Positions 3,543 through 21,539 of a stretch of DNA of 32,000 nt are shown in pieces. This stretch comes from Nitrososphaerota archaeon (GTDB lineage Archaea > Thermoproteota > Nitrososphaeria > Nitrososphaerales > UBA57): positions 1-32,000 of the forward strand of contig VHBL01000007.1 in the NCBI GenBank assembly GCA_016871995.1, written 5' to 3'. The position numbers and the translations under genes are program-made. The notes under the pieces are model-generated. The model saw only the letters and a program-made list of their open reading frames with translations, was not told the origin of the DNA and did no database searches. The stretch's first letter is position 1. Every line of letters starts with the position of its first letter.

Positions 3543-3543
3543 A

Positions 3544-4374
3544 GTGTTTACAGTCAATGCTGATATTAAAACGTTAACGCTTCAGGGGTTCATTAAGCTC
3601 TATCTTGAGTGGGGTATTTCTTTTGTACCTCTAATATACAAAGACAAAGCTCCGGCTCTTCAAGAAGGCGAGATTTACAAGTATCGGAAGAGGCAACCCA
3701 ACGAACAAGAGATAAAAAGATGGTTTTACAATGGCTCGCAACATGGCATAGCTGCTGTTTGTGGTTTCAATAACTTAGTATGCTTGGATTTTGACGATCG
3801 GAAGACATTCGAAGCCTACATAGCTGGAAGGCCCTTACCAGAAACTTTCATAACAAAGAGTGCCAGAGGCGTCCATCTTTACTTCATCAACGATAAGCCA
3901 ATTGGTAGTATGAGATACGAGGGCTTGAAAGTCGAACTGCTGGGGGCGTGGCATCTTTCAACGCTTCCGCCCTCTTTGCATCCTTCTGGCATTCAACATT
4001 CAATACTCAACATGCGTCCGATCAAATCGGTATTTGGAATTGAGACGGCATTTAACGCATTTGCAAAGTCTCAGGGTATAGACACTAAGAAATCTTCTAA
4101 GGCCATCACAAAGGCAGATTTAACGGGAATCGTCCCTGAGGGGATTAGGCACGAAACGGCAAAGAATTATGCTAAGCACCTCATTAGAGGCTTAAAACTA
4201 GATAGTACAACGTCTCTGTTCGAGCTTCAACGCTGGAATGAGAAGCATTGCGTACCTCCCCTTCCTGAAGGGGAACTCATAGACCTAGTACGGTATTTCA
4301 GCTCGAAGCAAAGGCAGATTTCTGCAGATTTGACCGAGGAGTTTGCAAAAAGGAGGGGTAGCTTTGCAGAGTGA
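3544..4374 (+). CDS. Bifunctional DNA primase-polymerase (AEP prim-pol domain)
   Basis: GISFVPL...KAP, LVCLDFDD (DxD metal site) and ARGVHLYF (sGxGxHxYF-like) in the order expected for Prim-Pol/pRN1-type AEP domains. GTG start 1 nt after the upstream stop. Confidence 0.7.
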   Translation: MFTVNADIKTLTLQGFIKLYLEWGISFVPLIYKDKAPALQEGEIYKYRKRQPNEQEIKRWFYNGSQHGIAAVCGFNNLVCLDFDDRKTFEAYIAGRPLPETFITKSARGVHLYFINDKPIGSMRYEGLKVELLGAWHLSTLPPSLHPSGIQHSILNMRPIKSVFGIETAFNAFAKSQGIDTKKSSKAITKADLTGIVPEGIRHETAKNYAKHLIRGLKLDSTTSLFELQRWNEKHCVPPLPEGELIDLVRYFSSKQRQISADLTEEFAKRRGSFAE

Positions 4375-5701: not shown

Positions 5702-5712
5702 CTCTTCTGACA

Positions 5713-5811
5713 TTAAGATAGGAAAAACCCCTGACAGAGTTGACAGGGTTGACGGAACTAGGGTTTTTGCGTCAGGGCTGTCAGGGCTGTCAACCCATTT
5801 CCCTATCTTAA
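5713..5811. repeat. 99-bp composite palindrome: outer 10-bp IR enclosing 3 forward + 3 inverted 9-bp iterons (YTGACRG core)
   Basis: ttaagatagg (5713-5722) pairs with cctatcttaa (5802-5811). Forward units are ccctgacag, agttgacag, ggttgacgg (5729-5755). Inverted units are gcgtcaggg, ctgtcaggg, ctgtcaacc (5769-5795). The spacer is 13 bp. Confidence 0.8.
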
Positions 5812-6053
5812 GTTCCGAAAGCCCAAAGGCTAACCCTTCAACCTTAGACTATTGGATCCAAAGTCCGAAACTTAACGCTAGGTTAACTCTAATCAAAGAA
5901 AAACCCTCTAAACTTAACGGGTTAACTATTCCTTCCTTCAGGCTAGGAATAAAATGCTCTGAGCATAAAGACCTTCAATATAACAATCCAATTTCATGGA
6001 GAGATCACTACCTCTTAACGCATGGCTTGATATTTGAAGAGGAGCAAAGTTAG

Positions 6054-6293
6054 ATGCCGAAAGCTAGGCTTGAAAGCGAAGGCAGTTATGAGAGATGGCT
6101 TAGTCAGGTTGCGAAGTTTAGCAATCGCTTTAGCCCTTACAAAATTCCCAGAACAAAGGAGCATGGAATAAGGAAGAGGCCGAAGCCTGAGCATGAAGCT
6201 ACAATCAGATACGAATGTAAGCCATGTGATCTAACCTTTCAGAATTTAGATTTGTACGAGATTCACAATGCGCTCAAGCATAAAGCAGGATAG
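6054..6293 (+). CDS. C2H2 zinc-finger protein
   Basis: YECKPCDLTFQNLDLYEIHNALKH is a classical C-x2-C-x12-H-x4-H finger. gaggag lies upstream of the ATG. Confidence 0.6.
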   Translation: MPKARLESEGSYERWLSQVAKFSNRFSPYKIPRTKEHGIRKRPKPEHEATIRYECKPCDLTFQNLDLYEIHNALKHKAG

Positions 6294-6969
6294 TGTTAGC
6301 AAATTGCAAACAATCAAGAATAAACGCAAAGGAAAGATGCTCCAACCTGAGGTTGCTCAAAAATGGGAAGCTCTGAAGCAATCTCTAAACTTCAGATCGG
6401 ATAACGAATTTGCCAATGCTCTTTTAGAAACTCAGAAGGATCGCTTAGTCCCCTTTGTCAGCCATGAAACTGTATTTAATTCACCTGCTCCAACTCTCAT
6501 AATTGGGGAGCCGGGTTCAAGAAAAACAACCTTAGTTAAGCAGTTAATCCCTTCAATTCGAAATTCTATCCTATGCATTGATCCCCATAGCGAGTACTTA
6601 GAATTGGAGCAGTTCAACGGGAAGGGAGAGGTTGTTAGCAAAGTCCCCTTAGGTTTCGAAATACTGAAGGGTTCGATGATTGACTTTAGCAGGAAACAAC
6701 GATTGAGGTTTATCCCTTCACAAAACCCCTTTGTTTCTGAAGCTGAGACAACTAGCCTCTTTATGAGTTTGAATGAAAGCAGGGAAAAAATGAAGGGTTG
6801 GACTCTAATCGTTGACGAATGTCATAGGTTCTCAGGTAATAGTTTATTCCGAAGCTTCATAACAGAGAGTAGAAAGTATTCGATAAAGTCAATTTTGATA
6901 ACTGCTGATTATGCGAAGTTTGAAGGGTTGGGCTATTTCCTAAGGCCTGCTCCAATTGGAAGGGCTTGA
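6268..6969 (+). CDS. HerA/FtsK-like P-loop ATPase with deviant Walker A
   Basis: IIGEPGSRKTT (Walker A with R in place of the second conserved G), CIDPHSEY (HerA/DUF87-like DphgEY) and LIVDECHRF (Walker B). The ATG at 6337 is an alternative start that avoids overlap with the preceding gene. Confidence 0.6.
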   Translation: MRSSIKQDSVSKLQTIKNKRKGKMLQPEVAQKWEALKQSLNFRSDNEFANALLETQKDRLVPFVSHETVFNSPAPTLIIGEPGSRKTTLVKQLIPSIRNSILCIDPHSEYLELEQFNGKGEVVSKVPLGFEILKGSMIDFSRKQRLRFIPSQNPFVSEAETTSLFMSLNESREKMKGWTLIVDECHRFSGNSLFRSFITESRKYSIKSILITADYAKFEGLGYFLRPAPIGRA

Positions 6970-7278
6970 ATGTTTCCAATCGTCATATCCCCTGAAATTA
7001 CAATAGTCATCTTCGGCGTGATAGTCTTACTTACCCTTCTGTTTCTTCAATCCCTAATATCAGGGTTCGGCTTAAGGGCCATTACTCGTTTCATTGTGGC
7101 AATCTTGACCCTGCTCGGTTTTGCACTGGGCCTGATGCCATTTATCCTGAACTCAGCAGGCTCTTCGATGGAGCTTTCAATTTTTACTCTGGTCTTTTTA
7201 TCAATTGGCCTTTCGGTGTCTAGCTTCGCTTTGAGTTTTTTGATAATAAGACCCTCTGCCAGTCATGCCAGAGCCTAG
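6970..7278 (+). CDS. Small integral membrane protein (about 3 TM helices)
   Basis: The ATG immediately follows the ATPase TGA. 102 aa, almost entirely hydrophobic segments. Confidence 0.5.
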   Translation: MFPIVISPEITIVIFGVIVLLTLLFLQSLISGFGLRAITRFIVAILTLLGFALGLMPFILNSAGSSMELSIFTLVFLSIGLSVSSFALSFLIIRPSASHARA

Positions 7279-7471
7279 AATTTTAGTTAATAGCTGATCT
7301 AAGAAGGGGTACTATCACACGTACACACACTAATAGCAAATCTCAATCAAAATTTGTTATTTTGTTCGTGATCTGTCAAATTCAAAAATTCCGTCTAGCT
7401 GTGGATTGACCAAATCAAATTCAGCAGTTAACTTTCAAATCTTATCAGGCGACAAAAAGAATTGCCCAAAG

Positions 7472-7650
7472 ATGTTAAAGATGGTAAAGATGCCGAACAA
7501 CCGTCTGTTAGCATTATTTAATTAGTTGTGGTATATTGAGCGTCGCCCAATCAAACAATCCTAAAGTTAACCGAAGCTCTGTCAATGATTGATGTTGACG
7601 ATGTGGGTGAACAAGAAGAGATTGCCCGTCTATAGATATATTATTTCTAT
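7472..7650 (+). repeat. Direct repeat copy 1 (upstream of methyltransferase-like gene), containing two micro-ORFs
   Basis: 38-bp block 7561-7598 is identical to 8857-8894. 23-bp block 7628-7650 is identical to 8924-8946, with the same 67-bp spacing. Micro-ORFs: 7472-7525 (MLKMVKMPNNRLLALFN) and 7585-7635 (MIDVDDVGEQEEIARL). Confidence 0.85.
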
Positions 7651-7721
7651 ATTGGTAGTTGTCGGGCTAGTTTGGAGAATGAGTATGTTTTTATTTTTGT
7701 TGTCAAGTAGATGTAAAAGAC

Positions 7722-8684
7722 ATGGATAACGCTCTAATTAACAAAATTGAAGGCTCTCTTCTAAAATTAAGAATGTATCAAGCGCAGAGAACTCTCAGCA
7801 TAGAAAAATATTGGCAAATGACATCTTTTACAAAGTTAAGGAGTCGGTTCTCGGAAAAATATGCTTATGCTAACAGATACGATTGTTCGGCTTTCATGTT
7901 AGACTTTTGGAATAAAAAATGCCTTGAACTAGAAAAGAGATTCCTTCCATACCCCCCCTTTTCTTTTCTAAGGGACAAGACAATCAGAGCCACAATGAAT
8001 ATATCTGAAGGTTATGCTTTCTGGCTCTTACAAAAGTATCTCCAATTCCTAGAAACGAGACTTTCTGAAGATTACCTATCGAATATGCTTCAAGAAGATT
8101 ATGTTGGAGAGCAAATCATTCTTAATTCAAAATACATGACTTCGTATGAAACTGTCCAGCATCTTTATCACTTCTTAAAATTAGCTGATTTTGGATGCAA
8201 AATAGATGATGTATCAAGCGTTGTAGAATGGGGAGGAGGATATGGTGATATGGCGAAGCTTTTTGTCAGAATGAACTCAAATAGAAACGTCAGCTATACA
8301 ATAATAGATATTCCCATAATGTCCTGCCTTCAATGGCTTTATCTTTCAAGTATTTTTGGTGAAGGGAAGGTTAAGATTATCCAAGACAGAGGTGAGCGAA
8401 TTGATAACGGGAAAATAAATTTGCTTCCTATATCTCTGGTTGAAAAATGCGATATTAACGCTGATCTATTCATATCTACATGGGCTTTAAGCGAATGTAC
8501 TAATTATGCTCAAGATTACGTGGTCAATAAGAACTGGTTCAACGCTAGAAACATCTTGCTCGCCTATCAATATAACACTTCAGAGGTTCCAAATGCTGAA
8601 AGGTTAGGCAGGTTAGCAGAGCAAAGTGGAGCAAATGTGCAAGAAATGGAGATAGTGCCAAGACATCATTATGCTTTTCGGTAA
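7722..8684 (+). CDS. Putative class I SAM-dependent methyltransferase (sugar O-methyltransferase-like), cargo gene
   Basis: 320-aa ORF. VVEWGGGYGDMAKLF resembles SAM-binding motif I (E/DxGxGxG), followed by an acidic residue about 20 aa later (IIDIP). AT-rich relative to its surroundings. Assigned by motif only. Confidence 0.45.
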   Translation: MDNALINKIEGSLLKLRMYQAQRTLSIEKYWQMTSFTKLRSRFSEKYAYANRYDCSAFMLDFWNKKCLELEKRFLPYPPFSFLRDKTIRATMNISEGYAFWLLQKYLQFLETRLSEDYLSNMLQEDYVGEQIILNSKYMTSYETVQHLYHFLKLADFGCKIDDVSSVVEWGGGYGDMAKLFVRMNSNRNVSYTIIDIPIMSCLQWLYLSSIFGEGKVKIIQDRGERIDNGKINLLPISLVEKCDINADLFISTWALSECTNYAQDYVVNKNWFNARNILLAYQYNTSEVPNAERLGRLAEQSGANVQEMEIVPRHHYAFR

Positions 8685-8771
8685 CGGGGTTCAATTTAGG
8701 CTATTTCTACCACATGGTAAATATTGAATGTATAAATCTAATTAGAAGGCAGAAGATAGTACCTGTTAATA

Positions 8772-8946
8772 ATGGGACTGATGGGATTGGTGGAAATCCC
8801 GAACAACCTGCTAGGTAGATTTAATTAATTAGTTATGGTGGGACAATCAAACTATTCTAAAGTTAACCGAAGCTCTGTCAATGATTGATGTTGATGATGT
8901 TGACGAAGGGGACGATGATGCCGGTCTATAGATATATTATTTCTAT
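8772..8946 (+). repeat. Direct repeat copy 2 (downstream of methyltransferase-like gene), containing two micro-ORFs
   Basis: See copy 1. Micro-ORFs: 8772-8828 (MGLMGLVEIPNNLLGRFN) and 8881-8931 (MIDVDDVDEGDDDAGL). Confidence 0.85.
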
Positions 8947-9131
8947 GCTGATAATAGTTTGATTAGTTAACTTAGTGCAAAGTCCCTAGTATAGTCAGGC
9001 TCAAACCCTAGCTGACAAAGGCATGTTTCGGCATGGGTCCCCCTAGCCAAACAAAGAGGAAATTGGTTAACTCTTATTCAATATTCTCCTAGAAACTTAA
9101 CTTTAATAACCTGCAGGGACTATATCAAATC

Positions 9132-9746
9132 ATGCAAAGTCATTTAGTTTTGAAGGGAGCAGAAGAGCTGATTAAGGAAGAGCTAGGGGATAATCCTGCT
9201 CAGGATCAGAAGGTCAAGGTTTATGCTTCTCATTTAGCAGATAGATGCACTCAGTTATCAGGGGAAACATGGACTTCTAAGAACTGCACAAACTCTTTGC
9301 GATCTTACGGGCTTTGGGATAGCGAACGGTTTCCAACTTTGCAGGGGAAATACGGCTTCTACGTTTTAGTTTCTTTGAATGACCTAAAGCAATTGAACCT
9401 CTGGGAGTGCTATGTATGCAATAGCAGGATCGTCAAAGGTCAGGGTAATGTTTGGCCTCATATCTTTGAATGTTGGGTAGAAGGGGTTTCCTGCTCTAAT
9501 TTATATTGTAATACCGTTGTTAAATCCTATGAAGAGGTACTTGAACATGAAAAAAATTGTCAGGTTTCTTTTATACCCTATAACTATGGTAGTTGCCCTG
9601 CCTGCAATGCGAAAATAAAACTATCAGAAATCAGAAGGCATGTCAATCAATGCAAAGATATCTTATCATGGGAGGAGCCTGAGCAACCTAGCACAAAGGA
9701 AACAGAAACCCCTAGCATAATCGAAGTTAAGAATGAAGCGCCCTAG
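9132..9746 (+). CDS. Cysteine-rich protein with three C2HC-type zinc-finger-like motifs
   Basis: CYVCNSRIVKGQGNVWPHIFEC, CSNLYCNTVVKSYEEVLEHEKNC and CPACNAKIKLSEIRRHVNQC each follow a C-x2-4-C-x12-H-x3-C pattern. Confidence 0.55.
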   Translation: MQSHLVLKGAEELIKEELGDNPAQDQKVKVYASHLADRCTQLSGETWTSKNCTNSLRSYGLWDSERFPTLQGKYGFYVLVSLNDLKQLNLWECYVCNSRIVKGQGNVWPHIFECWVEGVSCSNLYCNTVVKSYEEVLEHEKNCQVSFIPYNYGSCPACNAKIKLSEIRRHVNQCKDILSWEEPEQPSTKETETPSIIEVKNEAP

Positions 9747-9792
9747 AAGAGTCAATCAGGATCTTCTAGCCATAATGCAAAGGTACGGGATT

Positions 9793-9946
9793 AGTGAAGA
9801 TGGTGAAGTTAGTGAAGGCAGTGAAGGTAAAAAACACCCCCCATTATTTCCAGAAGTTCGTCAATTAACTAATAAAGATTCGTCAGAAAAAACAGGGGAG
9901 GCTCTGGGAAGTTCACCACCTTCACCAAGTTCAGTAACTTCAGTAG
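9793..9946. repeat. Inverted arrays of 9-bp-phased GTGAAG hexamers (4 forward at 9793-9828, 4 inverted at 9911-9946)
   Basis: Forward: agtgaagat ggtgaagtt agtgaaggc agtgaaggt. Inverted: gttcaccac cttcaccaa gttcagtaa cttcagtag. Spacer 82 bp. The arrays lie just outside the integrase 3' end. Confidence 0.8.
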
Positions 9947-9952
9947 ATAAAG

Positions 9953-11272
9953 TCAGGAAGGCAGTTTGATGATCGCTTTATCGTTAGGGATATGCGTTGC
10001 AAATTCCCAACCCTGCAATATGTAATTCTCCAATTCGTTAAGAGGAATAACCTTCTGCCTTGATCCATTACCCGTTAACATCTCTCTGTACTTCTTAGCG
10101 ATAAGCTCCTGAAACTCTTTGCTAGTTATGTTTGCCAAATCTAGTTTAGCGATCTCCCCTTCTGAATAACCTAAATCTGCCAATAGAGCAGCTCTAAACC
10201 CTCCTCTAACATCTTGCTGAGAGCTGATAACCCTAGTCTGCAAATATTCCTTTGAAGCTTTAGCATAGGAAGCTCTCATATCCTCTATTACGCTCTCAGG
10301 TAGTTTGTGCTTATTCGTTGTGTACCTAGCTTCGATATCCCCTTTATGTCCCATGAAAAAGACCCTATAATCTCTTAGAATGAGGCCCTTACTCTCAGCT
10401 AACATCATTTCAGTATCAAAATAACTTCTTAGAACATAGGGCCTCCATGAAAAACCTGCTTCCCTTATGGGACCTCTGAGAGCATCACCAATATTGTTAG
10501 ACCTGATAAACGGCCTGTCAGCTGCTTTGAATGTTGGTGATTTCGCTTTAATGAGAGGGGACTCTGGATCGAATTTACTAGTACCATTCCCCCTTAACCT
10601 GCTCTCAAGATAGTCTTTGAGATATTCGCAAGCCTCTTCATTCAGGAAGCTAAAGTATTGATGTCTTGCTTTGCTAAGTTGCGATCTGACAATAACCCTA
10701 GCAGGAATAACCGTAAAATTGACCTCTGACCCCTTGATCTCAAGCTCAGGAATATCCATAACTCTGAGTCCGTCAGAGCCGTCATAATTGCCAATACTTT
10801 CAAGCCTAAGGCCTGCAAAGCACACTAAGGAGGCCGTTGTCTTAACCTTCGGATCGGCAAAGGATAGTATCTTAACCAATTCCTTCTGAGTTGGGACTCT
10901 CTCTTCCTTCAGTGAAGGGGTTTCGTCAGCTCCTTTGACCTTGATTTTTCTTTTAACTTCAATCCCATGATGAGAGAGCCATGACTTTACATTCTTTAAC
11001 CTGCTTTCAACATAAGAGCCTGCATATTTCTGCCTCTCCATAGAGCTGACATAATCCATAAGGAGATTATAGAGGTCCTGCTCATTCAGCTTCAAAAGGT
11101 CTTTAGGTTGCTTTCTAACATTCTGACAGAAGTTTCCTAGTCCACGAAGATAAACGTCAGCTGTTGTTATTGCACCCCTAGCAACATTCTCATACCATCT
11201 TTTGATATCAGGGTCTTTAAGGAGGGCTTGATGTTCACCTTTGCCTTTTTCCCTATACTTCCCCTTAGCCAT
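9953..11272 (-). CDS. Tyrosine recombinase/integrase (non-partitioning type)
   Basis: AGLRLES (Arg I), YVLRSYF (Arg II region) and MGHKGDIEARY (His/Tyr nucleophile). Adjacent to the target tRNA. I prefer the ATG at 11272 (MAKGKYREK...), because the track start at 11368 reads through the tRNA gene. Confidence 0.85.
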   Translation of the reverse strand: MAKGKYREKGKGEHQALLKDPDIKRWYENVARGAITTADVYLRGLGNFCQNVRKQPKDLLKLNEQDLYNLLMDYVSSMERQKYAGSYVESRLKNVKSWLSHHGIEVKRKIKVKGADETPSLKEERVPTQKELVKILSFADPKVKTTASLVCFAGLRLESIGNYDGSDGLRVMDIPELEIKGSEVNFTVIPARVIVRSQLSKARHQYFSFLNEEACEYLKDYLESRLRGNGTSKFDPESPLIKAKSPTFKAADRPFIRSNNIGDALRGPIREAGFSWRPYVLRSYFDTEMMLAESKGLILRDYRVFFMGHKGDIEARYTTNKHKLPESVIEDMRASYAKASKEYLQTRVISSQQDVRGGFRAALLADLGYSEGEIAKLDLANITSKEFQELIAKKYREMLTGNGSRQKVIPLNELENYILQGWEFATHIPNDKAIIKLPS

Positions 11273-11326
11273 AACACTAAGTCTAAAAGATTGCACTAGA
11301 TAAGGGTATCTGAACCCGTTTATAGA

Positions 11327-11400
11327 TGGACCGGGAGGGATTCGAACCCTCGACCCCCACCATGCCAAAGTGGTATCCTACCAGGCTAGACGACCGGCCC
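11327..11400 (-). tRNA. tRNA-Ala (anticodon GGC)
   Basis: Manual cloverleaf: GGGCCGG/CCGGTCC acceptor with the G3:U70 alanine identity pair, anticodon loop TTGGCAT, T-arm GAGGG-TTCGAAT-CCCTC, discriminator A, no encoded CCA. Confidence 0.9.
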
Positions 11401-11514
11401 ATGTTCAGAAAGTGATCTTAAAGCGCGTTTTGGAGTCCTTATTTGGTTTTTCTAATCCAATCGAAACTTAGCCCTAGTGTAGTTGTACATTTTTGACTGC
11501 AAATAAGATTAATT

Positions 11515-11874
11515 ATGCGGTACCCAATTGGTGAGACCATGACCGAACGAAGAGAGATCCCTGTCAAGATGAGATATTCAGACAAGTTCAGCAGCATTTA
11601 TGCGACTGGCGCAGTTGGAGGCTTCAACGGCTATGATTTTCGCATAGCGTTTTTTGTCGATAGAGTTATCCATGCAGAAGATCCGAGCATGCTCCCTACT
11701 GGAGTCAGGGAGATTCAAACGGAGGTTCTGCTTTCGCTCAGGGCTGCAAAAGAACTTAGGGACTGGCTTGATGCCAATGTCAGGGAGATAGAGAAATCGA
11801 TGGGCGAGATTAAGAAACCCGAAGAGGGCCAGCCTGTAAGGGCCGTTGACAGCACAACAAAGCCGTATGCATAA
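11515..11874 (+). CDS. Small conserved protein, DUF3467-like
   Basis: 119 aa. SSIYATGAVGGFNGYDFRIAFFVD resembles the DUF3467 core as I recall it. The stop overlaps the helicase start (TAATG at 11872-11876). Confidence 0.45.
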   Translation: MRYPIGETMTERREIPVKMRYSDKFSSIYATGAVGGFNGYDFRIAFFVDRVIHAEDPSMLPTGVREIQTEVLLSLRAAKELRDWLDANVREIEKSMGEIKKPEEGQPVRAVDSTTKPYA

Positions 11875-14447
11875 TGCTCCAAAGGTACCGCTGCCCACAG
11901 TGCAAATCAAAACTAGAAATTAGGAGGCTCTTTGACCTAAGGTATCTCCTGAACTGCTCGAAATGTGGCATCTCTGCTATCGTGCTCCCCCCTATTGATA
12001 GTCAGGATGAAGCCTACCTTTCTTTCCTTGGCTCCTATGACAGAAGAGAACTATCAAATGATCTAAAATACCAAGAGGTTCTGCAGCAAGAAAAAGTTGT
12101 ACGCAAAGAAGAAGACATTCGAAGGCTAGTAGAGGATGCTGGAACAACCCTGGACAGAATTCCTGCACCACTCCGAGACGCCCTTTTTTCAAAGAATGAT
12201 TATGTTGTAAATTATAGGATATTCGAGCCACAGGAGCCGAAATTAGGCTGCAGGCCAGAAGAGATTCCTTCAATCGTGCCTCTATCTCCTTCCCTTAAAG
12301 ACGCAGGGATTGACAGGTTCTACAAGTTTCAGGAAGAATCGTGCAAAGAGGTCTTGGAAGGGAAGAATGTAGTCATAGTGGCTCCAACGGGAGCAGGAAA
12401 AACGGAAGCTTTCGCCTGCCCAATAATAGCCAAGGTACACCAAGAGGTTTCAGAAGCAAAATTAGCAGGAATGGTAAGAAAGCGTGTCAGAGCTTTATTC
12501 ATTTATCCCACAAAGGCACTAACAAGGGATCAAGTTCCCAAGATACAAAACCTTGCAGCTCCTCTTGGAGTAAGGACTGCCATATTTGACGGAGATACTC
12601 CAAAGATAGAGAGGGACAGGATAATTGAAGAGCCTCCAGACATTCTAGCAACTAATTTCGATACAATACATGCTCACCTAATGAACAGGACAAAACTCTC
12701 CTTCATGCTAAGAAGCGTAAGGTACCTTGTCGTCGATGAGATCCACTCGTACTCAGGCACCTTTGGCACCAATGTATACTTTATACTAAAAAGATTGGAA
12801 AGGGTTTGCGGAGGATTCCAATGGGTGGCAGCCTCAGCGACGATAGAGAATCCAAAGGAGTTTACCCAGCAACTATTTGGCGAGGAGTCAGAGCTTATCG
12901 AATCAGGTCAGCTGCGACGCAGCAGAATGCACTTCACAATGCTCTTCCCAAGTCTCCGCTCACATAGGTCGCTAGCCCTTGACCTTGTGGAAAAGACTGC
13001 AAAGAGTAACTATGGCACGATAGTGTTTTCGTCATCGCATTTAGGCACAGAATTAACTGCCTTCTACGGCCGAAAAAAAGGAATCAACATCGCTGTTCAC
13101 AGGGCAGGTCTGCTGGCAAGTTTCAGAAAGACGGTAGAGGAGAACTTCAAGAAAGGTCTGCTAACAGCAATAGCAGCGACGCCTACACTTGAACTTGGCA
13201 TAGATATTGGCAGAGTGGATGCTGTAGTTTCAGACCTTGTCCCTGTAACAAGATTGATACAGAGGACAGGTAGAGCTGGGAGGAGAGGACAAGAGAGTCT
13301 GGCATTTTTGGTGCTCAGGGATAGCGACCCCATAAGCCAGTATTACAAGAACCACCCAGAGGATTATTTTGATGACGTAGAGCCTGGTTATATCGATCCC
13401 TTTAACCCTGTAATTGCTGACTTTCACCTCCTTGCAGCTTCGCTTGATGAGCCTTTGAAATCCAGTGAATTTGCAGAATACGTAGGTAATCTTGAAAGAC
13501 TACAAAAGTCCTTTTTGCTCAAGGAAATCCGCGGTAGATTATTCCCAGATTACAAGGAAGTCAGAAAGCTCCTGCAGAAATACGACATAAGGGGAATCGG
13601 TGAGAGTGTAGCGATAAGATTTGCAAACAAGACGATCGGAGAAAGGAATATGCCTCTGGCAATGGAGGAGCTTCACAAAGATGCTATCTATTTCCTTGCT
13701 GGCACACGTTATCGGTCGAAGAAGTTTGAATTCAATGGAGGAGCAGGTTATGCAGAGGTTGAACGCATATCCCCAAACTATCCATACTACACTAAGGCCC
13801 TGCTGGACGAATGGCCAACGGTAACGCAGGTCTTTGAAACCAAGAGCGTGAAGGATATCGAGGTTTCTTACTGCAATCTGCTGATAGAGAAGAAGGTTGT
13901 TGGCTATGTGAATATAGAAATCGGGAAGGAACTTGCGAGGGGGGAGAGAGTAATGCTAGAGGATCCTTTGTCGTACAAATTTGCGACAAAAGGCTTCGTC
14001 TTTAGAGCGCCAATGCCTAAGAATGCTCTGGAGAATGCCGAGGAAGAGGAAGTTGACAAGACCGCCATGAGCGCATTTCACGCAACTGAGCACGTCATAA
14101 TTGAAGGCTCTAATATGATTACTGGAGGGGCATCGCAAGACATGGGAGGGATTTCGCTAGGCACTTCTGGTCTTATCTTCGTCCACGACGGGACTCCTGG
14201 CGGGAATGGCGCATCAAAAGCACTGTACGACAGGCTCGATAAGGCATATGAGCGAGGGTTAAAGATTCTTTCAGAATGTCAGTGTACTTCCATCAGTGGA
14301 TGCCCAAGGTGCACCTATTCGTACAGATGCGGCAATAACAACGAGTTTCTGCACAAACTTGCAGCCAAGGAGGTGCTGGAAAGAATATTGGATGGGGAAA
14401 CTACCAACATTATTGAGCCTATGCTAGGTGAGAAGGCCATAGTCTAG
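11874..14447 (+). CDS. COG1205 (YprA/MrfA-type) DEAD/DEAH-box helicase with N-terminal Zn-ribbon and C-terminal DUF1998 Cys cluster
   Basis: CPQCKSK...CSKCG ribbon. Helicase motifs APTGAGKTEAF (I), PTKALTRDQ (Ia), VVDEIH (II), SAT (III), QRTGRAGRRG (VI). C-terminal FHATEH...CQCTSISGCPRCTYSYRCGNNNEFLHK is the DUF1998 four-Cys metal site. Confidence 0.85.
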   Translation: MLQRYRCPQCKSKLEIRRLFDLRYLLNCSKCGISAIVLPPIDSQDEAYLSFLGSYDRRELSNDLKYQEVLQQEKVVRKEEDIRRLVEDAGTTLDRIPAPLRDALFSKNDYVVNYRIFEPQEPKLGCRPEEIPSIVPLSPSLKDAGIDRFYKFQEESCKEVLEGKNVVIVAPTGAGKTEAFACPIIAKVHQEVSEAKLAGMVRKRVRALFIYPTKALTRDQVPKIQNLAAPLGVRTAIFDGDTPKIERDRIIEEPPDILATNFDTIHAHLMNRTKLSFMLRSVRYLVVDEIHSYSGTFGTNVYFILKRLERVCGGFQWVAASATIENPKEFTQQLFGEESELIESGQLRRSRMHFTMLFPSLRSHRSLALDLVEKTAKSNYGTIVFSSSHLGTELTAFYGRKKGINIAVHRAGLLASFRKTVEENFKKGLLTAIAATPTLELGIDIGRVDAVVSDLVPVTRLIQRTGRAGRRGQESLAFLVLRDSDPISQYYKNHPEDYFDDVEPGYIDPFNPVIADFHLLAASLDEPLKSSEFAEYVGNLERLQKSFLLKEIRGRLFPDYKEVRKLLQKYDIRGIGESVAIRFANKTIGERNMPLAMEELHKDAIYFLAGTRYRSKKFEFNGGAGYAEVERISPNYPYYTKALLDEWPTVTQVFETKSVKDIEVSYCNLLIEKKVVGYVNIEIGKELARGERVMLEDPLSYKFATKGFVFRAPMPKNALENAEEEEVDKTAMSAFHATEHVIIEGSNMITGGASQDMGGISLGTSGLIFVHDGTPGGNGASKALYDRLDKAYERGLKILSECQCTSISGCPRCTYSYRCGNNNEFLHKLAAKEVLERILDGETTNIIEPMLGEKAIV

Positions 14448-14497
14448 CAATGCAGGGTTTAGAAGGATTAATATGTAACTTTGAAATTAACGCAATC

Positions 14498-14788
14498 ATG
14501 TCCCTCTTCATAAGGCTACTGAGGTTCACGCCAGAAGGTGCCAAGGGGCTGAAACAGTTTGCTGCAAGGCGGGCAGAGTTTGCAAAATCGGCCAGCAAGC
14601 TAGGTATCAAAGTTGTTGGAGAATATGTCACCACAGGTAGATACGACCTGATAACCATCCTTGACGCTCCAAATCTTGATGCAGTGCTAAAGCTGAGCGC
14701 AAAGGTTGCAGCTACTGGAAGGACGACGTCAGAAACACTGTCTGCCGTGACTGCTAAGCAGTTCGAGAAACTCGCAAAGTCTGCTTGA
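14498..14788 (+). CDS. GYD-domain protein
   Basis: MSLFIRLLRFTPEGAKGLKQ...VVGEYVTTGRYDLITILDAPN fits the GYD family pattern (GxYD, then the D.P motif). The internal ATG is preferred over the track start at 14450. Confidence 0.65.
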   Translation: MSLFIRLLRFTPEGAKGLKQFAARRAEFAKSASKLGIKVVGEYVTTGRYDLITILDAPNLDAVLKLSAKVAATGRTTSETLSAVTAKQFEKLAKSA

Positions 14789-15061: not shown

Positions 15062-15802
15062 ATGCTGTGTAATATGGAGGAACAGAAGCATCCACTTACA
15101 AGGCGGCAGTTCATCCAGAGGCTCAGGCGCTTGGGTTTGAGTAGGTATCAGGACAAACATCCCTTTACGGTGATACTCAACCAAGGCAAGCTGACAAAGA
15201 CGCAGCTGCAGGCCTATATTCTGAATTGGTACTATTTTGAAAAGATGATACCGCAGAAGGATGCTGGAATCATATCCAATTGCCCTATACCAGAAGTTAG
15301 AAGGATATGGGTTTCAAGGATTCTTCGCCATGATGGGTATGGCGATATTGAGGGTGCGACGGAAGGCTGGCTAAGGCTGTGCTTGGCCGCAGGGATAGAC
15401 CGTAATACTGTAATGAGGGCCCGGTTCCTGCCTGGAGTTAGGCTTGCAATAGATTCCTATGTCCAATACACAAAATCCAAAACATGGCTTGAGGGAATAG
15501 CAACATCGCTTACGCAAGTATTTCTGCCGAGACTTGTTGAAAGAAGGGTGAATGCTTTTGTGAAACATTATGAGGACTATGTTTCTCCCAAAGGTTTGGA
15601 GTATTTTATGTCCCTGCAGAATGCTGCGAAAGAGGGCAGCAAGATGGCCCTTGATTTAGTTCTTCGCTACGCTGCGACGAGAGAAGCGCAAGATATGGTT
15701 ACCAACGCTGTACTGTATATGGACGATGTCCTGTGGAGCATACTTGATGCGATATATTCTGCTTACGTTGTCAGGAGTGCATCTCTGTCAGCCTCCATAT
15801 GA
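15062..15802 (+). CDS. pqqC: PqqC-like protein (pyrroloquinoline-quinone synthase / TENA-THI4 fold)
   Basis: HPFTVILNQGKLTKTQLQAYILNWYYFEKMIPQKDAGIISNCP closely follows the PqqC N-terminal signature (hPF...G.L...ql..W..NrYyyq..IP.KDa.ilsnc). Confidence 0.65.
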   Translation: MLCNMEEQKHPLTRRQFIQRLRRLGLSRYQDKHPFTVILNQGKLTKTQLQAYILNWYYFEKMIPQKDAGIISNCPIPEVRRIWVSRILRHDGYGDIEGATEGWLRLCLAAGIDRNTVMRARFLPGVRLAIDSYVQYTKSKTWLEGIATSLTQVFLPRLVERRVNAFVKHYEDYVSPKGLEYFMSLQNAAKEGSKMALDLVLRYAATREAQDMVTNAVLYMDDVLWSILDAIYSAYVVRSASLSASI

Positions 15803-16612: not shown

Positions 16613-17572
16613 CTAATAATCAGAGAGTCTCTTACCAGATTTCTGAAGAAATATCTTTAGTTCATTCAATGTTGGCACACTACGCGCTCCTTGCTTTGTG
16701 GTCGATACTGCCGCAACCAAATTAGCAAACCTGCAAGCGTCAACAAATCTTTTCTTATCAATCAGCGCAGAAATTAGTGCAGCAGAGAATGCATCACCGG
16801 CTCCGGTAGTATCTATTGCATGAACATCAACCGGCACCTTGATTTCTTTTGTGTGGCTTTCGTTGATTATGCAGCCATCTTTTCCTAAAGTTACTACGAC
16901 AAGTCTGGGGCCGTAATCCCTGATGATCTTGAAACTTTCCTGTATGTCGTCACTATTGGTGAAGACCTTTACTTCTTCCGAATTTAATTTCAGAATAGTA
17001 GTATAAGTAAGAATCTTTCTGAACTTTTCAATGCCTTTTACCGCAAATTTGAAGCCCGGATCGAATAGAACGCTTACGCCAGTCTGTGATGCATATTTTG
17101 CGGCGACTTCAAGTATCTCTACTGCTTCGTTATTTACGATGCTATGCAATGAAAGGAACGTCGAATTTTGTATATAGTCTTTTTTTACATCGCTCTTTGA
17201 AAAGGTCGACTGCACTCCACCATTTAGATACAAAATTCTCTGGCCCTTTTTGTTGACTATGGCTATTGCCATGCTAGAGCTGTTCTGCTCTATTTTTGCG
17301 CCGCTGATGTCGACTCCTTCCCTCTTGAATTCATCAATCAGAAATTTGCCAAAGTTGTCATTGCCTATCTTTCCGATAAAGCCAGATTTTTTCCCAAGCC
17401 TGCGGACACCGACGGCGACGTTTGCAGCAGAACCACCTCCTTGCAGTTCACTTTTCTCAGTTGTTGCCTCTTGGTCGGATTTTGCAAAATCTTTTACGTA
17501 CAGCATGAGGTCTATGTTTGCTGCACCAATTGAAACTAAATCTAGCACAGTATCATCACTGACCACATGCAA
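16613..17572 (-). CDS. PfkB-family carbohydrate/nucleoside kinase
   Basis: GGGSAANVAVG (PfkB signature 1 region) and DTTGAGDAFSAALI (PfkB signature 2). Confidence 0.85.
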   Translation of the reverse strand: MHVVSDDTVLDLVSIGAANIDLMLYVKDFAKSDQEATTEKSELQGGGSAANVAVGVRRLGKKSGFIGKIGNDNFGKFLIDEFKREGVDISGAKIEQNSSSMAIAIVNKKGQRILYLNGGVQSTFSKSDVKKDYIQNSTFLSLHSIVNNEAVEILEVAAKYASQTGVSVLFDPGFKFAVKGIEKFRKILTYTTILKLNSEEVKVFTNSDDIQESFKIIRDYGPRLVVVTLGKDGCIINESHTKEIKVPVDVHAIDTTGAGDAFSAALISALIDKKRFVDACRFANLVAAVSTTKQGARSVPTLNELKIFLQKSGKRLSDY

Positions 17573-17710
17573 TAAAATCCTTACCGATGTTCATCTCAGC
17601 GGTGTCTTTGTAGTGAGCCAAGGCGCAATCGCTGATGTTAGAAGTCATTTTGGACACTTAATAAATCCAAATCATAAGTATATACCGAGCAAAACTCAAC
17701 GGGTGATTGT

Positions 17711-18652
17711 ATGGGGACCACGCATAAGGTAATTTTTGGTAATTCGCTGAACATGAAAGAGTTGCGGAGGAACAGTATTCATTTGGTAGTAACTTCTCCG
17801 CCATATTTTAACGCGCCTTTCGATTATCCAGATTTTTTCAAAACCTACAAGGATTTTCTAGCACTTATCAAAGGTATGGCGAAGGAGCTTAAACGAGTAG
17901 TCGCACCGGGCAGAGTTTGTTGCTTTGTTGTAGATGACATGCTTGTGGACGGTGAAAAGTTCCCTGTTGTTTCAGATGTTACACAAATAATGACACGATC
18001 AGGTTTCAGATATCGAGACAGAATAGTTTGGATAAAGCCCAAAGGCTATGTTAGGATTAGTCGGAGAAGCGGAGTTCTGTTGCAACATCCCTATCCGATG
18101 TATTTCTATCCTGACAACATGCAAGAAAGCATCCTTATCTTCCAAAAGGGGAAGTTTGATTATTCTTATCTTAAAACTCTGCCTGCTGAGGTCTTGGCTA
18201 GATCAAAGATAGATGTCAAGGAGTTCAATCTTACGGATGCGCCCTTTATGGTTTGGGACGACCTAAGCGGGGAGGAAAGAAAACCTATTCCAAACACGTG
18301 GCGGATCACTAATGTTCTGCCGATGAAAGGACGTTTGGAAGAGGGTGTGGCTGCCTTCCCCGGAGAAATCGCTAGACGGCTGGTAAAGCTGTTTACATTT
18401 ATTGGAGAGACTGTGCTTGACCCATTTGCAGGCTCGGGCACCACGCTCAAGGTTGCAAAAGAGTTAGGAAGGAATTCGGTTGGTTATGAAATTGATTTGG
18501 AGCTTAAGCCAGTCATCGCAGAAAAACTTGGACTTGAACAAGCTACACTTTCGAACGACGCAGTCGAGTTTCTAGAAAGAGATGATGCGGGTCATTTCCG
18601 AACCACCCTACAGGAAAAAGTGGAGCATAAAGAGAGTGTCGCTACAAGATGA
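17711..18652 (+). CDS. N4-cytosine/N6-adenine DNA methyltransferase (N6_N4_Mtase family, beta class)
   Basis: The catalytic VVTSPPYFNAP (S/DPPY) motif is N-terminal and the SAM motif VLDPFAGSGTTLKVA is C-terminal. This order is typical of beta-class amino-MTases. Confidence 0.85.
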   Translation: MGTTHKVIFGNSLNMKELRRNSIHLVVTSPPYFNAPFDYPDFFKTYKDFLALIKGMAKELKRVVAPGRVCCFVVDDMLVDGEKFPVVSDVTQIMTRSGFRYRDRIVWIKPKGYVRISRRSGVLLQHPYPMYFYPDNMQESILIFQKGKFDYSYLKTLPAEVLARSKIDVKEFNLTDAPFMVWDDLSGEERKPIPNTWRITNVLPMKGRLEEGVAAFPGEIARRLVKLFTFIGETVLDPFAGSGTTLKVAKELGRNSVGYEIDLELKPVIAEKLGLEQATLSNDAVEFLERDDAGHFRTTLQEKVEHKESVATR

Positions 18653-18841
18653 GCGCATCAGAATAACTGCTGAAATTACTGGTATAAAATATGTTCCGAA
18701 ACTTGGAAGGACGCTACACGAATTTTATATCTCATCACTGGCGGAGGCACTTTCGACAGATGTGTCGTTTTTTAGAAACGGATGATTGTACGTTAAGGGT
18801 TTATCTTGGATTTGGGCTGATTCTGGCGATGTTTTTTGTAG

Positions 18842-18916
18842 TGGGCCAGGGCGGACTTGAACCACCGACCTTCGCTGTGTAAGAGCGATGTCCTAACCAA
18901 GCTAGACGACTGGCCC
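18842..18916 (-). tRNA. tRNA-Val (anticodon TAC)
   Basis: Manual cloverleaf: GGGCCAG/CTGGCCC acceptor, anticodon stem TCGCT/AGCGA, loop CTTACAC, T-arm GGTGG-TTCAAGT-CCGCC, discriminator A. Confidence 0.9.
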
Positions 18917-18980
18917 GAGCTGAGCCAGAACTTGCATTTTCTAATAAGCATTCTAACTTCATATTTTATTTCTGCAGGTC

Positions 18981-20444
18981 TTATTTCTTTATCCTGAAGC
19001 AAAGGCGTTTGATTTTGAACTCCCCGGGTGAAAGCTTGCAGAGCCAATCATGCACCCTCTGCCTGAGCTCCACCGCTATGTCCATGGTAATGCTGAGTTC
19101 TTCATCGGTAAAGTCTCCATGCGGGCTAATTATCTTGAGAATTCCGCTTGCAAGTTTCCTGATGCTCTTTTCGTCGCGAATCCCGAGATTTCCTCCCTCT
19201 GCTGAAAGTTCTACCCTCTCGGCAATATGGTGCTGAAAGTCTTCCTTCCTTAGCTGGTTCATGACCTCGCAGAAATACTGCGAAACGAATCCGTAACTCT
19301 TTGAAAGATGCAGATCGCTCTGCATGATCTTTGGCAGTTCCCAGCCAGGGATGAATCCGTGAATCCTATCGACAAAAGCAGAATCCCGCATGCATTCAGG
19401 AATGACCCCTGAAAATTCTTCGCCAGGCAGGTTTCCCTTCACCTCTATATTACCCATGAAGACGAGCGAGCACGTGCTTCTGACGCGCTTTAGCATGCCT
19501 CTTTCAAATTCGCCACTCTCCATGTAGTCTTTCAGTTTGCCCATCATCTCCTCAGGGTTTGCGAACTCGATCTTGCTTATTTCATCGAAGACTACGCATT
19601 CCCTGACCCCTATCTCCCCCAGAGTCTTGAAGTTGCCATGATAGAATAACACTGCAGGGCTGACCTTTCCCCCTGAAAAGAGCCTTGTATAGTATGAAAT
19701 ATTCTTGAAAAGAAACGATTTGCCTGTGGCTCTTGGTCCGAGCTCCAAGACGTTTACGTTCTGCTCGACCAGCGGGATGAGCCTCGAAAGCAGAAGCAGC
19801 TTCTGCCTGCGTGAATAGACTTCTGGGTTGAGCCCTATTGTATTGATTATTGAGGACATCCACTCTTCAGTTGAAAAATGCTTCCTCTTCCCGTTGAACT
19901 CCTCTATGTTGAAAGTAGAATACTGGAGGGGTTCGAACTCGGTCATGATGATTGGGGAGTTCAGCTCCTGCTGGGTTCCGTAGTTGAACTCTGGTGAATA
20001 ATTTATTGTAGCAACTCCCCAAATGCCCGCCTCGAGAAGGTCTTTTTGCTTCTCGAGTAGGGATGCCCTGATTCTTGCATTGTAAATGCCCAGGCACGGC
20101 ACTTCGACTCTGTGAATGCCATTTTTGATATCTACGCGTACCTTGAATTCGTCCAAAAGCGTGTATTGGCCTTTAGTAAATAGCTCGTGCAGGACCCTGT
20201 CCTTCATCTTAGCTTCAGGGTAGTAGCGATTGACAAACTTGGCCATTTCTGCAAGGTCCTTGGGCTTGACACTGTCTCCGCAGAAACGCTTGATAGCAGA
20301 CTCGGCTATGAATCTTGGCAGTCTGCTAACCTCACGCAGCTCGTAAAGTTTCTTGTTGACTATCTGGTCAGGGAAGTTCCTCTTGAGCTTCGAATCTAGA
20401 AGCTCCTGAGGGCTCTTCACTGACTGGGTAATCGTGGCTGGCAC
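18981..20444 (-). CDS. BrxL-like AAA+ ATPase, short form without Lon-protease domain (TIGR02688-like)
   Basis: RRQKLLLLSRLIPLVEQNVNVLELGPRATGKSFLF...LFSGGKVSPAVLFYH...VVFDEISKI...KDYMESGEFERG...CSLVFMGNIE matches my recollection of the conserved BrxL ATPase core (ELGPRGTGKS, SGG.T.A.LF, FDE, KDYMESG.F.RG). At 487 aa it is too short to include a Lon protease domain. Confidence 0.65.
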   Translation of the reverse strand: MPATITQSVKSPQELLDSKLKRNFPDQIVNKKLYELREVSRLPRFIAESAIKRFCGDSVKPKDLAEMAKFVNRYYPEAKMKDRVLHELFTKGQYTLLDEFKVRVDIKNGIHRVEVPCLGIYNARIRASLLEKQKDLLEAGIWGVATINYSPEFNYGTQQELNSPIIMTEFEPLQYSTFNIEEFNGKRKHFSTEEWMSSIINTIGLNPEVYSRRQKLLLLSRLIPLVEQNVNVLELGPRATGKSFLFKNISYYTRLFSGGKVSPAVLFYHGNFKTLGEIGVRECVVFDEISKIEFANPEEMMGKLKDYMESGEFERGMLKRVRSTCSLVFMGNIEVKGNLPGEEFSGVIPECMRDSAFVDRIHGFIPGWELPKIMQSDLHLSKSYGFVSQYFCEVMNQLRKEDFQHHIAERVELSAEGGNLGIRDEKSIRKLASGILKIISPHGDFTDEELSITMDIAVELRQRVHDWLCKLSPGEFKIKRLCFRIKK

Positions 20445-20531
20445 TGGCTACAAGTTATGGCAGCGGTTTATTTGGCGGTGATTCGATCTCCTTTAACAAA
20501 ATTGTCAAGCTGGGCCAAGTTAGACATGCTG

Positions 20532-21539
20532 TCAATATTCGAACCTGCTTACCAGATAGTCTGACAGCTTCAGAAGTTTCTTTCCAGCTTCGCTTGGTAT
20601 CTGCAGTATCCCTGCCCTAGCCTTCTCTGCATATTCTCTGGCAAGCTTGTTGGCATATTCAATTGAGCCTGCTTGTCTGAATACTCCCTTGGCGTGGTTG
20701 ATCTTCTCTTCTCTAGGCTCTTCCTTTCCCATCAGCTTGTATATGCTCTGCAACTGCTGCTTTGAGCCATTATTGATAAGGTGCAAAACCAAGATGTTCT
20801 TCTTCCCGTGAATTATGTTGTTGAAGATTGGCTTTCCTATCTTGGACGGGTTACCCATGATATCCAGCATGTCGTCGAATATCTGGTAGGCTATCCCAAG
20901 GTTCTCCCCGATGCTGTAGAATAATTGGATATCTTCGTTGGTGCCTCTGCCGACTACTGCTCCGCAGGCTGCAGGCCCTGCCAAGAGAGCCCCGGTCTTG
21001 TTTCTGACCATTTCTATGTACTCTTCGATCGTCGTTTCGTCTTTCCTTGCAAGCTCTAAATCCAAAAATTCGCCAATGACCGTCGCCTTCGACGCAGCCC
21101 CGGCAATCTTGAGAATGTCATAAACTGCGCCTTCAGGAAGGTCAAAGTTCTTGTACTGCGAAAGTAGCGTATAGGTTTCGGATATCAAAAGGTCGCAGAC
21201 CAGTATTGCCATGACTTCTCCACTTTCTGTATGCACGGTCGGAAGGCCCCTTCTCCTGTTTGCCCGGTCTATAATGTCGTCTTGGACTAGTGCTGCCGCA
21301 TGTCCTATCTCATAGCTTACCGCCAGAGGGATAGCAGGTCTGTAATCGCCGCAGCATGCCTCGCAGGATAGGAGGCTGAGCATGGCACGTATTCGTTTCC
21401 CTTTGGAGACAGCTTTCCGTGCTATTGCATGGATCACGTAATTCTCGGGAAACAACTCTTCGATCTTGCTGTTTATTGCATCACGGTACTCTGCAAATTC
21501 CTTATCGTAGATAGCCCGAGACACGAAGTTGCCCACCAT
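20532..21539 (-). CDS. Polyprenyl (geranylgeranyl) diphosphate synthase
   Basis: First aspartate-rich motif LVQDDIIDRANRRRG and second FDDMLD, plus the KT motif GKTGALL-like (NKTGALL). Confidence 0.85.
   Translation of the reverse strand: MVGNFVSRAIYDKEFAEYRDAINSKIEELFPENYVIHAIARKAVSKGKRIRAMLSLLSCEACCGDYRPAIPLAVSYEIGHAAALVQDDIIDRANRRRGLPTVHTESGEVMAILVCDLLISETYTLLSQYKNFDLPEGAVYDILKIAGAASKATVIGEFLDLELARKDETTIEEYIEMVRNKTGALLAGPAACGAVVGRGTNEDIQLFYSIGENLGIAYQIFDDMLDIMGNPSKIGKPIFNNIIHGKKNILVLHLINNGSKQQLQSIYKLMGKEEPREEKINHAKGVFRQAGSIEYANKLAREYAEKARAGILQIPSEAGKKLLKLSDYLVSRFEY

Follow-up and report, generated by a model that had tools for sequence, protein, structure and literature searches.

A gene for a DNA methyltransferase (MTase) and a gene for a short BrxL-like AAA+ ATPase lie side by side in a 32-kb stretch of DNA from a Nitrososphaerota archaeon (contig VHBL01000007.1, positions 1 to 32,000), referred to here as the window. 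An earlier note, made from the sequence alone, had offered three readings of the pair: a two-gene module of methylation plus AAA+ ATPase, a decayed remnant of BREX (bacteriophage exclusion), or a coincidental juxtaposition. Our analysis supports the last of these. We put at about 0.85 the probability that chance has brought together an orphan MTase, left from a decayed type II restriction-modification (R-M) cassette at the 3' end of tRNA-Val, and a solitary, vertically inherited short BrxL. BrxL is kept in relatives that have no MTase, and the MTase stands on an insert of its own.

An insert beside tRNA-Val carries the methyltransferase

The MTase and BrxL genes are convergent and 329 bp apart, with the tRNA-Val gene between them (Table 1). 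The MTase, the tRNA and the ATPase on the opposite strand were all found at essentially the coordinates that the earlier note gives, and the housekeeping flanks it described were confirmed, a PfkB kinase on one side and a polyprenyl (GGPP) synthase on the other. The gene content marks the window as archaeal, with genes for a proteasome alpha subunit, aIF2-alpha and a DUF2070 protein. The note had further stated that the window contains no restriction endonuclease (REase), PglZ, PglX or BrxA/B/C. The BREX part of this statement stands, given that Pfam and PADLOC produced no match to these proteins among the window open reading frames (ORFs) scanned; the REase part does not, because a 39-codon stump of an REase gene follows the MTase.

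We compared the window with related contigs, labelled Thaumarchaeota or Nitrososphaerales and numbered L001, L009 and so on. Collinearity between L001 and the window extends from DUF2070 to PfkB; the BrxL protein of L001 is 90% identical and its DNA 82-89% identical. The gene order there is BrxL, tRNA-Val, PfkB, and nothing lies between the tRNA and PfkB. By BLASTN, window positions 16650-17625 and 18828-20522 map to adjoining stretches of L001, showing that the window carries about 1.2 kb of extra DNA. The two alignments overlap on L001 11607-11630, and L001 therefore has a single copy of a sequence that is repeated in the window.

The two copies of this direct repeat (19 nt, 2 mismatches) coincide exactly with the limits of the insert as set by the L001 comparison. 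The left copy corresponds to the tRNA-Val 3' end and its downstream flank in degenerate form. In 300 shuffles of the sequence, none reached 19 nt with at most 2 mismatches, the shuffle maximum being 18. The 3' end of tRNA-Val faces the insert, and the orthologous tRNA is found in both L001 and L009. Read from the PfkB side, the order is repeat, M gene, R-gene stump and repeat/tRNA; the 1209-bp insert holds the MTase and the REase stump only, with no integrase or recombinase. An Rfam search of 17000-21000 found tRNA as the only known RNA family, and a scan for bacterial-type promoters and terminators, a type of scan ill-suited to an archaeon, gave counts no higher than those in shuffled sequence.

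The remaining relatives agree with L001. We checked four further contigs, from relatives that are about 85% identical; among these, neither the MTase nor the REase is present in L009, L095 or L096, all of which keep the GGPP synthase-BrxL pair. When the three L001-type contigs are counted once, the set of close relatives comprises five contigs; the comparison among relatives that the earlier note had suggested finds the MTase of the islet missing from all five, and GGPP synthase-BrxL kept in every one.

The insert resembles tRNA-targeted integrative elements in that it abuts a tRNA 3' end and its direct repeat includes that end, but it differs in having no mobility gene and in the degeneracy of the repeat. 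The insertion of R-M units can be accompanied by long duplications of the target. In this lineage, the surroundings of tRNA-Val are a hotspot of rearrangement. In L009 (11446-14738), 3.2 kb separate tRNA-Val from BrxL and the tRNA has the inverse orientation relative to BrxL; a Na+/H+ exchanger and a winged-helix gene lie between the two, and a run of small ORFs comes next.

Origin of the methyltransferase

The MTase protein matches PF01555 (N6_N4_Mtase) with 137 bits against a cut-off of 26.7, and PADLOC MTase_II (PDLC03353) with 219 bits. SPPY is found at residues 29-32 and DPFAGSGTT at residue 237, in keeping with the beta-class N4/N6 enzyme that the earlier note had recognized from these motifs. 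The family is large, with members at 60-83% identity across many archaeal phyla, and its closest solved structure is 2ZIE. Across 118 family members, 100 alignment columns show conservation of at least 97%; the window protein agrees with 99 of these, the sole difference being a Val for an Ile, and SPPY is present at motif IV in 119/119 family sequences. SPPY or SPPF at motif IV, rather than DPPY, goes with N4-cytosine rather than N6-adenine specificity, and from this motif we infer that the enzyme makes N4-methylcytosine. Synonymous divergence (dS) from the nearest available homologues is saturated, so that the ratio of nonsynonymous to synonymous substitution rates (dN/dS) is not estimable for this gene. 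A scan of IMG/VR with the MTase gave no confirmed viral relatives, a single-protein scan of this kind reaching close relatives only.

We inspected three close homologues of the MTase, P0123 (82% identical), P0130 (78%) and P0134. In P0123 and P0130, the MTase gene is followed after a 4-bp gap by a gene of 352-353 aa that has no Pfam match. The 352-aa homologue matches PADLOC REase_II (PDLC03572) with 337 bits over model positions 6-357 of 371; a sequence search found no solved structure for it. The third homologue, P0134, is an orphan MTase amid housekeeping genes. The REase gene is intact in L088 and L093, and the peptide encoded directly downstream of the window MTase is the counterpart of residues 1-39 of these proteins (Table 1). 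In the window, the start codon of this gene is changed from ATG to ATC and the frame meets a stop 3 codons past the end of homology. A terminator-like hairpin with a T-run (18754-18773, the T-run itself at 18768-18773) lies at the truncation point. A PQQ dehydrogenase occurs near the MTase-REase pair in L093; its likeness to the PQQ gene in the window is probably a coincidence.

Because a 39-codon REase stump follows the MTase, and because two of the three homologues have an intact REase gene in this place, we conclude that the MTase is an orphaned M gene, left over when a type II R-M cassette decayed. The likeness to type II systems with a PF01555 MTase extends from the MTase_II match to the order M then R with a 4-bp gap in the relatives and the REase_II match of R. 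The difference is that R is here cut to 39 codons and an intact cognate REase gene is absent, leaving modification without restriction. The enzyme probably still methylates its own site in host DNA, now as an orphan.

These features suggest the following course of events. A mobile type II R-M cassette would have come in at the 3' end of tRNA-Val, or have been lost from there by recombination, with the result that about 19-28 nt of the target are now duplicated. Later, the REase gene would have been deleted down to its first 39 codons while the MTase stayed intact. The short BrxL would be the older gene; it is held beside GGPP synthase under constraint of the housekeeping level.

Table 1 Features of the methyltransferase-BrxL locus and, in the last rows, of a second element in the window.
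Feature	Position	Strand	Remarks
Left copy of imperfect direct repeat	17607..17625	.	TTTGTAGTGAGCCAAGGCG; limit of the insert on the PfkB side
Insert relative to L001, 1209 bp (1.2 kb)	17626..18834	.	MTase gene and REase stump only
Beta-class DNA amino-methyltransferase	17711..18652	+	313-aa ORF; PF01555
Remnant of type II REase gene, codons 1-39	18657..18773	+	tblastn, 64% identity to L088/L093 REase, E = 6e-11
Right copy of direct repeat	18835..18853	.	TTTGTAGTGGGCCAGGGCG; 6 nt of flank and last 13 nt of tRNA-Val
tRNA-Val, anticodon TAC, intact	18841..18916	-	ARAGORN and Rfam (Rfam bounds 18842-18916)
Short BrxL-like AAA+ ATPase, 487 aa	18981..20444	-	TIGR02688; BrxL_N and BrxL_ATPase; 8EMC match
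Conserved block in intergenic region 5' of BrxL	20445..20531	-	alignment A2; core GGCCCAGCTTGACAATTTTGTTAAAGGA
Prim-Pol	3544-4374		tRNA-Ala element
P4/D5-type primase-helicase	4343-5701		tRNA-Ala element
HerA/VirB4-like ATPase	6268-6969		tRNA-Ala element
Zinc-finger protein	9132-9746		tRNA-Ala element
Tyrosine-recombinase-like ORF	9953-11368		tRNA-Ala element; start inside the tRNA-Ala gene

The ATPase belongs by sequence to the short BrxL family

The BrxL-type assignment of the 487-aa ATPase passed the profile search proposed in the earlier note: the protein matches TIGR02688 (short BrxL) along positions 1-448 of the 449 in the model, scoring 469.4 bits where the cut-off is 329.3, and has Pfam matches to PF13337 (366 bits) and PF20442 (83 bits), the BrxL_ATPase and BrxL_N families. 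The claim that it has no room for a Lon domain is also borne out. The long-form model TIGR02653 gives 328 bits against a cut-off of 628, and the alignment to it breaks off at position 459 of 675. In the Acinetobacter BrxL structure 8EMC, the match to the ATPase spans residues 8-463 (E = 5e-76) and stops short of the Lon-like C-terminal domain; the C-terminus of the ATPase is the equivalent of residue ~470 of 8EMC. The Walker A (GPRATGKS) and Walker B (DEIS) motifs are conserved, and the alignment with 8EMC agrees with this. The protein has the family-invariant residues of a 20-sequence alignment (A1), including G236, P237, T240, G241, K242, D287 and E288; A1 contains the window protein, and its invariant columns match it by construction. 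A scan of IMG/VR with the BrxL alignment gave no confirmed viral relatives. By sequence and domain composition, the window protein is a member of the known short-BrxL family.

The BrxL of Acinetobacter is an ATP-dependent, chambered, MCM-like ring that binds double-stranded DNA and whose C-terminal domains mediate ring-ring contacts (PMC10164562). By homology to this solved protein, the window ATPase would be an ATP-dependent, ring-forming AAA+ protein of the MCM-like clade that binds double-stranded DNA; having no C-terminal domain, it is expected to form single rings.

BrxL has been described as limited to BREX types 1 and 4 (PMC10164562; PMC12839542), the type 4 protein being a short form without C-terminal extension (PMC12839542). 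The window protein has the same domains as type 4 BrxL, an N-terminal DNA-binding region and an MCM-like AAA+ domain with no C-terminal extension. In type 4 BREX, however, PglZ, BrxC and a PAPS-reductase stand beside BrxL, and none of these is found in the window or the syntenic relatives. With type 1 BrxL (8EMC/8EMH) it shares the N-terminal domain, the AAA+ domain and the Walker A and B motifs. In contrast to the type 1 protein, it has neither the Lon-like domain (residues ~498-679) with its ring-ring dimerization nor a BREX operon around it. Indeed, the locus fails every BREX test that we applied (PglZ; BrxC/PglY; PglX), and the window MTase, a PF01555 protein of 313 aa, is not PglX. A PglZ profile built from the loci surveyed below found no match in the window, L001 or L009. 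In the literature searched, which does not cover all journals, there is no description of BrxL with a type IIG enzyme or with DUF1156/DUF499 proteins, or of BrxL standing alone.

Inheritance of BrxL and its upstream region

We estimated dN/dS by pairwise Nei-Gojobori comparison among the window, L001 and L009. For BrxL, dN/dS is 0.062-0.064 at dS of 0.85-1.44, with amino acid identities to the window protein of 0.90 in L001 and 0.84 in L009. The adjacent GGPP synthase gives very similar values (dN/dS 0.069-0.089, dS 0.74-1.13, identities 0.895 in L001 and 0.844 in L009), and further neighbour genes range from 0.04 to 0.16 in dN/dS. In six contigs or more, the BrxL ORF runs to its full length and retains every invariant residue. 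It occupies the same position beside GGPP synthase in L001, L009, L095 and L096; in the window, GGPP synthase lies upstream of BrxL across an 87-nt gap. GGPP synthase apart, the genes around BrxL differ by genome and are all housekeeping genes, such as PfkB and ABC transporters in L001 and an O-methyltransferase and a Na+/H+ exchanger in L009. A metagenome scan added two more close relatives only. The low dN/dS, together with identities that track those of GGPP synthase, indicates that the two genes are inherited together. As judged from these substitution patterns, BrxL is vertically inherited with GGPP synthase under purifying selection and is not a decaying remnant.

The region upstream of BrxL is conserved as well. 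The ~80 nt before its start hold a 28-nt core, GGCCCAGCTTGACAATTTTGTTAAAGGA, that is invariant in four genomes at dS around 1. The block as a whole is ~90% identical between the window and L009 (counted by eye in alignment A2), compared with ~80% for coding DNA, and an A/T-rich AAATAAA lies ~30 nt before the start codon. The block is also found at L001 9923-10000, at L009 9894-9985 and in L095. In L001 it is still joined to BrxL, though extra DNA parts it from GGPP synthase. Rfam has no match for it. We presume that this block is the promoter or regulatory region of BrxL itself; a promoter with an operator is one possibility, an element of the 5' untranslated region another.

Partners of short BrxL in other genomes

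To find what accompanies short BrxL elsewhere, we used a 20-sequence BrxL alignment to scan GTDB genomes, one for each species, and obtained 79 loci. We counted the 48 short-BrxL loci with at least 3.5 kb upstream and at least 1 kb downstream, a sample dominated by archaea. The most frequent partners are a DUF1156 MTase with a DUF499 or DUF499-like ATPase (PADLOC HmaB/HmaC-like; 13/48) and a type IIG restriction-methyltransferase fusion of ~1,200 aa directly upstream (12/48). A BREX-like combination of DUF6079 and PglZ accounts for 3/48, a minority that goes against the statement in the earlier note that short BrxL-like proteins normally sit next to PglZ-type genes. Nine loci carry further recurrent gene sets whose function is unassigned, and 11 have no recurrent partner, among them the window, L001, L009 and L063.

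The type IIG, DUF1156/DUF499 and PglZ partners are large, co-directional with BrxL and directly upstream of it; in the type IIG loci, the gap to BrxL is about -26 to +7 nt. The type IIG fusion matches PADLOC REase_MTase_IIG (PDLC03630) over its full length with 1191 bits. We also considered whether the large MTase beside short BrxLs is PglX and rejected this (49 bits against 400 for BREX-2, 39 against 500 for BREX-1). In some DUF1156/DUF499 loci, BrxL is followed by a small PglZ-like gene that stands alone (hhalign 92%). In a neighbour-joining tree, the BrxL clades follow the type of partner, and the solitary clade is sister to the type IIG-linked L004, L010 and L012. The IIG gene of L010 is fragmented beside BrxL.

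The window MTase has no counterpart in this survey. The co-occurrence check proposed in the earlier note came out negative: a close relative of the MTase is adjacent to short BrxL in the window only and in 0/86 other loci. Two distant PF01555 proteins do occur in short-BrxL loci, which already hold other partners.

We searched for traces of partners with 14 tblastn queries (type IIG, DUF1156, DUF499-like, DUF6079, PglZ, and the proteins labelled c15 and c20-c24), and none gave a match at E < 0.01 in the window, L001, L009 or L063. The same held in these four contigs for BrxC/PglY (DUF499/DUF6079 ATPase), for c6 and for type IIG/PglX-like proteins. Tested for a type IIG-BrxL operon, the window, L001 and L009 showed no IIG-like sequence. 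Over the 8.5-10 kb examined to each side of BrxL, there is neither a partner gene nor a remnant of one.

Several arrangements recur among the surveyed loci. The two-gene arrangement of a type IIG enzyme and short BrxL is found in archaea and two Thermotogaceae (L004 6588-11785; L022 6299-11413; also L019-L021, L023-L025, L028, L029, L031, L033, L034, L055 and L059). An operon at L035 3327-12752 encodes a DUF1156 MTase, a 1,087-aa DUF499-like ATPase (hhalign 92% to DUF499), BrxL and proteins of 272 aa and 172 aa, and operons of this type recur in L036, L037, L039, L041, L042, L047, L053, L060 and L071. Another, at L062 452-9835 and also in L011, L014, L017 and L073, encodes a DUF1156 MTase, DUF499 (HmaC-like), BrxL, a 300-aa stand-alone PglZ-like protein (hhalign 92%) and a 125-aa protein. 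Both types look like DUF499-centred BREX-related systems (PMC12839542) with BrxL replacing the helicase.

In Thaumarchaeota and Bathyarchaeota (L006/L007/L008 7087-11425; L015 7081-11434), an operon of four genes ends with short BrxL, and the three proteins encoded ahead of it (~210, 325 and 432 aa) match essentially no family. This operon adjoins an SMC/AAA_15-like gene of 827 aa, and the neighbourhood in L006 also includes a Type ISP R-M enzyme and an integrase. In L030, L032, L044 and L045 (Nitrososphaera and other Thaumarchaeota), the ~400-aa c24 protein, whose sole match is a marginal SWIM zinc finger, precedes a short BrxL of ~500 aa; these two may form another two-gene arrangement. Finally, the Hodarchaeota locus L083 (1-17860) contains two diverged three-gene sets placed as mirror images, tail to tail, each with a 1,300-aa protein, PglZ and short BrxL, the two BrxL genes being 95 nt apart.

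Weighing the explanations

Several points count against reading the pair as a chance juxtaposition with a solitary BrxL. The repeat is short and imperfect, and 1 of the 300 shuffles reached 18 nt. Since the insert has no integrase, the mechanism of insertion can only be inferred. The MTase is fully intact after the loss of its REase, making a selective benefit possible, and, on sequence alone, a functional interaction between MTase and BrxL is conceivable. On the side of BrxL, the partner search covers ~10 kb per side in the relatives and 32 kb here; the ORFs of the surveyed loci are simple ORF calls that were then clustered, with recurrent clusters annotated; and the neighbour-joining tree is without bootstrap support.

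What the solitary ATPase does is less certain than how it came to lie beside the MTase. Our preferred view, which we hold tentatively and at slightly less than even odds, is that it is a stand-alone DNA-engaging ATPase with no partner in its neighbourhood and a lineage-stable role in defence or in DNA transactions. We favour this over the alternative that BrxL is functional but cooperates in trans, its partner being a methylation-dependent restriction system at another genomic site (type IIG, DUF1156/DUF499 or BREX). The alternative is rather unlikely, yet it is the strongest of the rivals: a recurrent partner is present in 37/48 loci and the clades track partner type, which suggests that a partner is normally needed, and in type 1 BREX, BrxL contributes to restriction only alongside the other BREX proteins (PMC10164562, PMC12839542). 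Such defence partners are normally operonic with BrxL, however, and nothing suitable lies in the flanks examined. It would also be unusual for part of a mobile, fast-turnover system to be passed on so stably by vertical descent, at one housekeeping position, in several diverged genomes.

The reading in which the MTase and short BrxL form a two-gene defence or epigenetic module, the MTase marking self and BrxL acting on unmarked DNA, or a minimal BREX, we consider very improbable. Its attractions are that short BrxL genes are very often linked to some DNA MTase (type IIG fusions, DUF1156), that the genes are so close together, and that the MTase has outlasted its REase. The pattern of presence and absence among the relatives already refutes it in large part. 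The MTase is on a separate insert and came with an REase partner of its own, whose stump remains; in the close relatives where it is missing, BrxL is equally constrained. The two genes are convergent across a tRNA, whereas the type IIG, DUF1156/DUF499 and PglZ partners identified elsewhere are co-directional and directly upstream, and the MTase is a small beta-class PF01555 enzyme, whereas those elsewhere are large gamma-class or DUF1156 enzymes. No other surveyed locus holds a close member of its family.

There is equally little reason to take the ATPase for a functionless, decaying leftover of BREX or of a type IIG-BrxL pair: the sister position of the type IIG-linked clade and the fragmented IIG gene of L010 make the loss of a former partner plausible, but a dN/dS of 0.06 at dS of 0.85-1.4, equal to that of the housekeeping neighbours, the full-length ORF with its complete set of invariant residues, the conserved upstream region and the lack of partner pseudogene fragments by tblastn all speak against the decayed BREX remnant that the earlier note had envisaged.

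Other elements in the window

A probable integrated element of ~9 kb (2257-11401) is found at tRNA-Ala(GGC) (11325-11401, minus strand). Its genes are listed in Table 1, GC content drops to 0.36-0.41 over its length, and an imperfect direct repeat of the tRNA-Ala 3' end is present at 2257-2279 (TGGACCGGGAGGtATTtGAAt) and 11327-11347. Adjoining this element is a gene for an 857-aa DEXH helicase (11874-14447) with a C-terminal MrfA Zn-binding domain (DUF1998/MZB), and a GYD-domain protein comes next (region 11874-14788). We examined the helicase as a candidate for BREX BrxHI and rejected it: the PADLOC match (175 bits) covers the SF2 core only, and the architecture is MrfA/YprA-like. The DruE and DrmA models also match the helicase core only, and the best full-length architecture is TIGR03817-like, under the cut-off of that model. 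The collinearity with L001 ends at the PfkB gene, near 16650. The part not collinear with L001 holds a PQQ-dependent dehydrogenase and a PqqC/TENA-family protein (21-2171 and 15062-15802).

Discussion

The locus is a clean case of the birth of an orphan MTase, in which the REase stump and the insertion scars are still visible. It also carries a caution, namely that adjacency across a tRNA hotspot can unite genes of separate histories. What is left once the MTase is set aside is a lone BrxL under constraint of the housekeeping level, in an archaeal lineage related to ammonia oxidizers.

The archaeal relatives of the window BrxL are mostly found beside type IIG enzymes and DUF1156/DUF499 genes and not in BREX operons. 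A wider reading, which we regard as doubtful at present, is that the BrxL clade of the Nitrososphaerales is domesticated or autonomous, with no BREX, type IIG or DUF499 partner genome-wide, and that short BrxL is a portable DNA-engaging motor. If this is true, the motor would have been plugged into at least four kinds of methylation-based system: type IIG R-M, DUF1156/DUF499 with or without a stand-alone PglZ, type-4-like BREX, and several unassigned gene sets. It would also contradict the published restriction of BrxL to BREX types 1 and 4. A BrxL that functions free of BREX partners, or has a single-polypeptide type IIG enzyme as its partner, would offer a far simpler setting in which to work out the role of BrxL.

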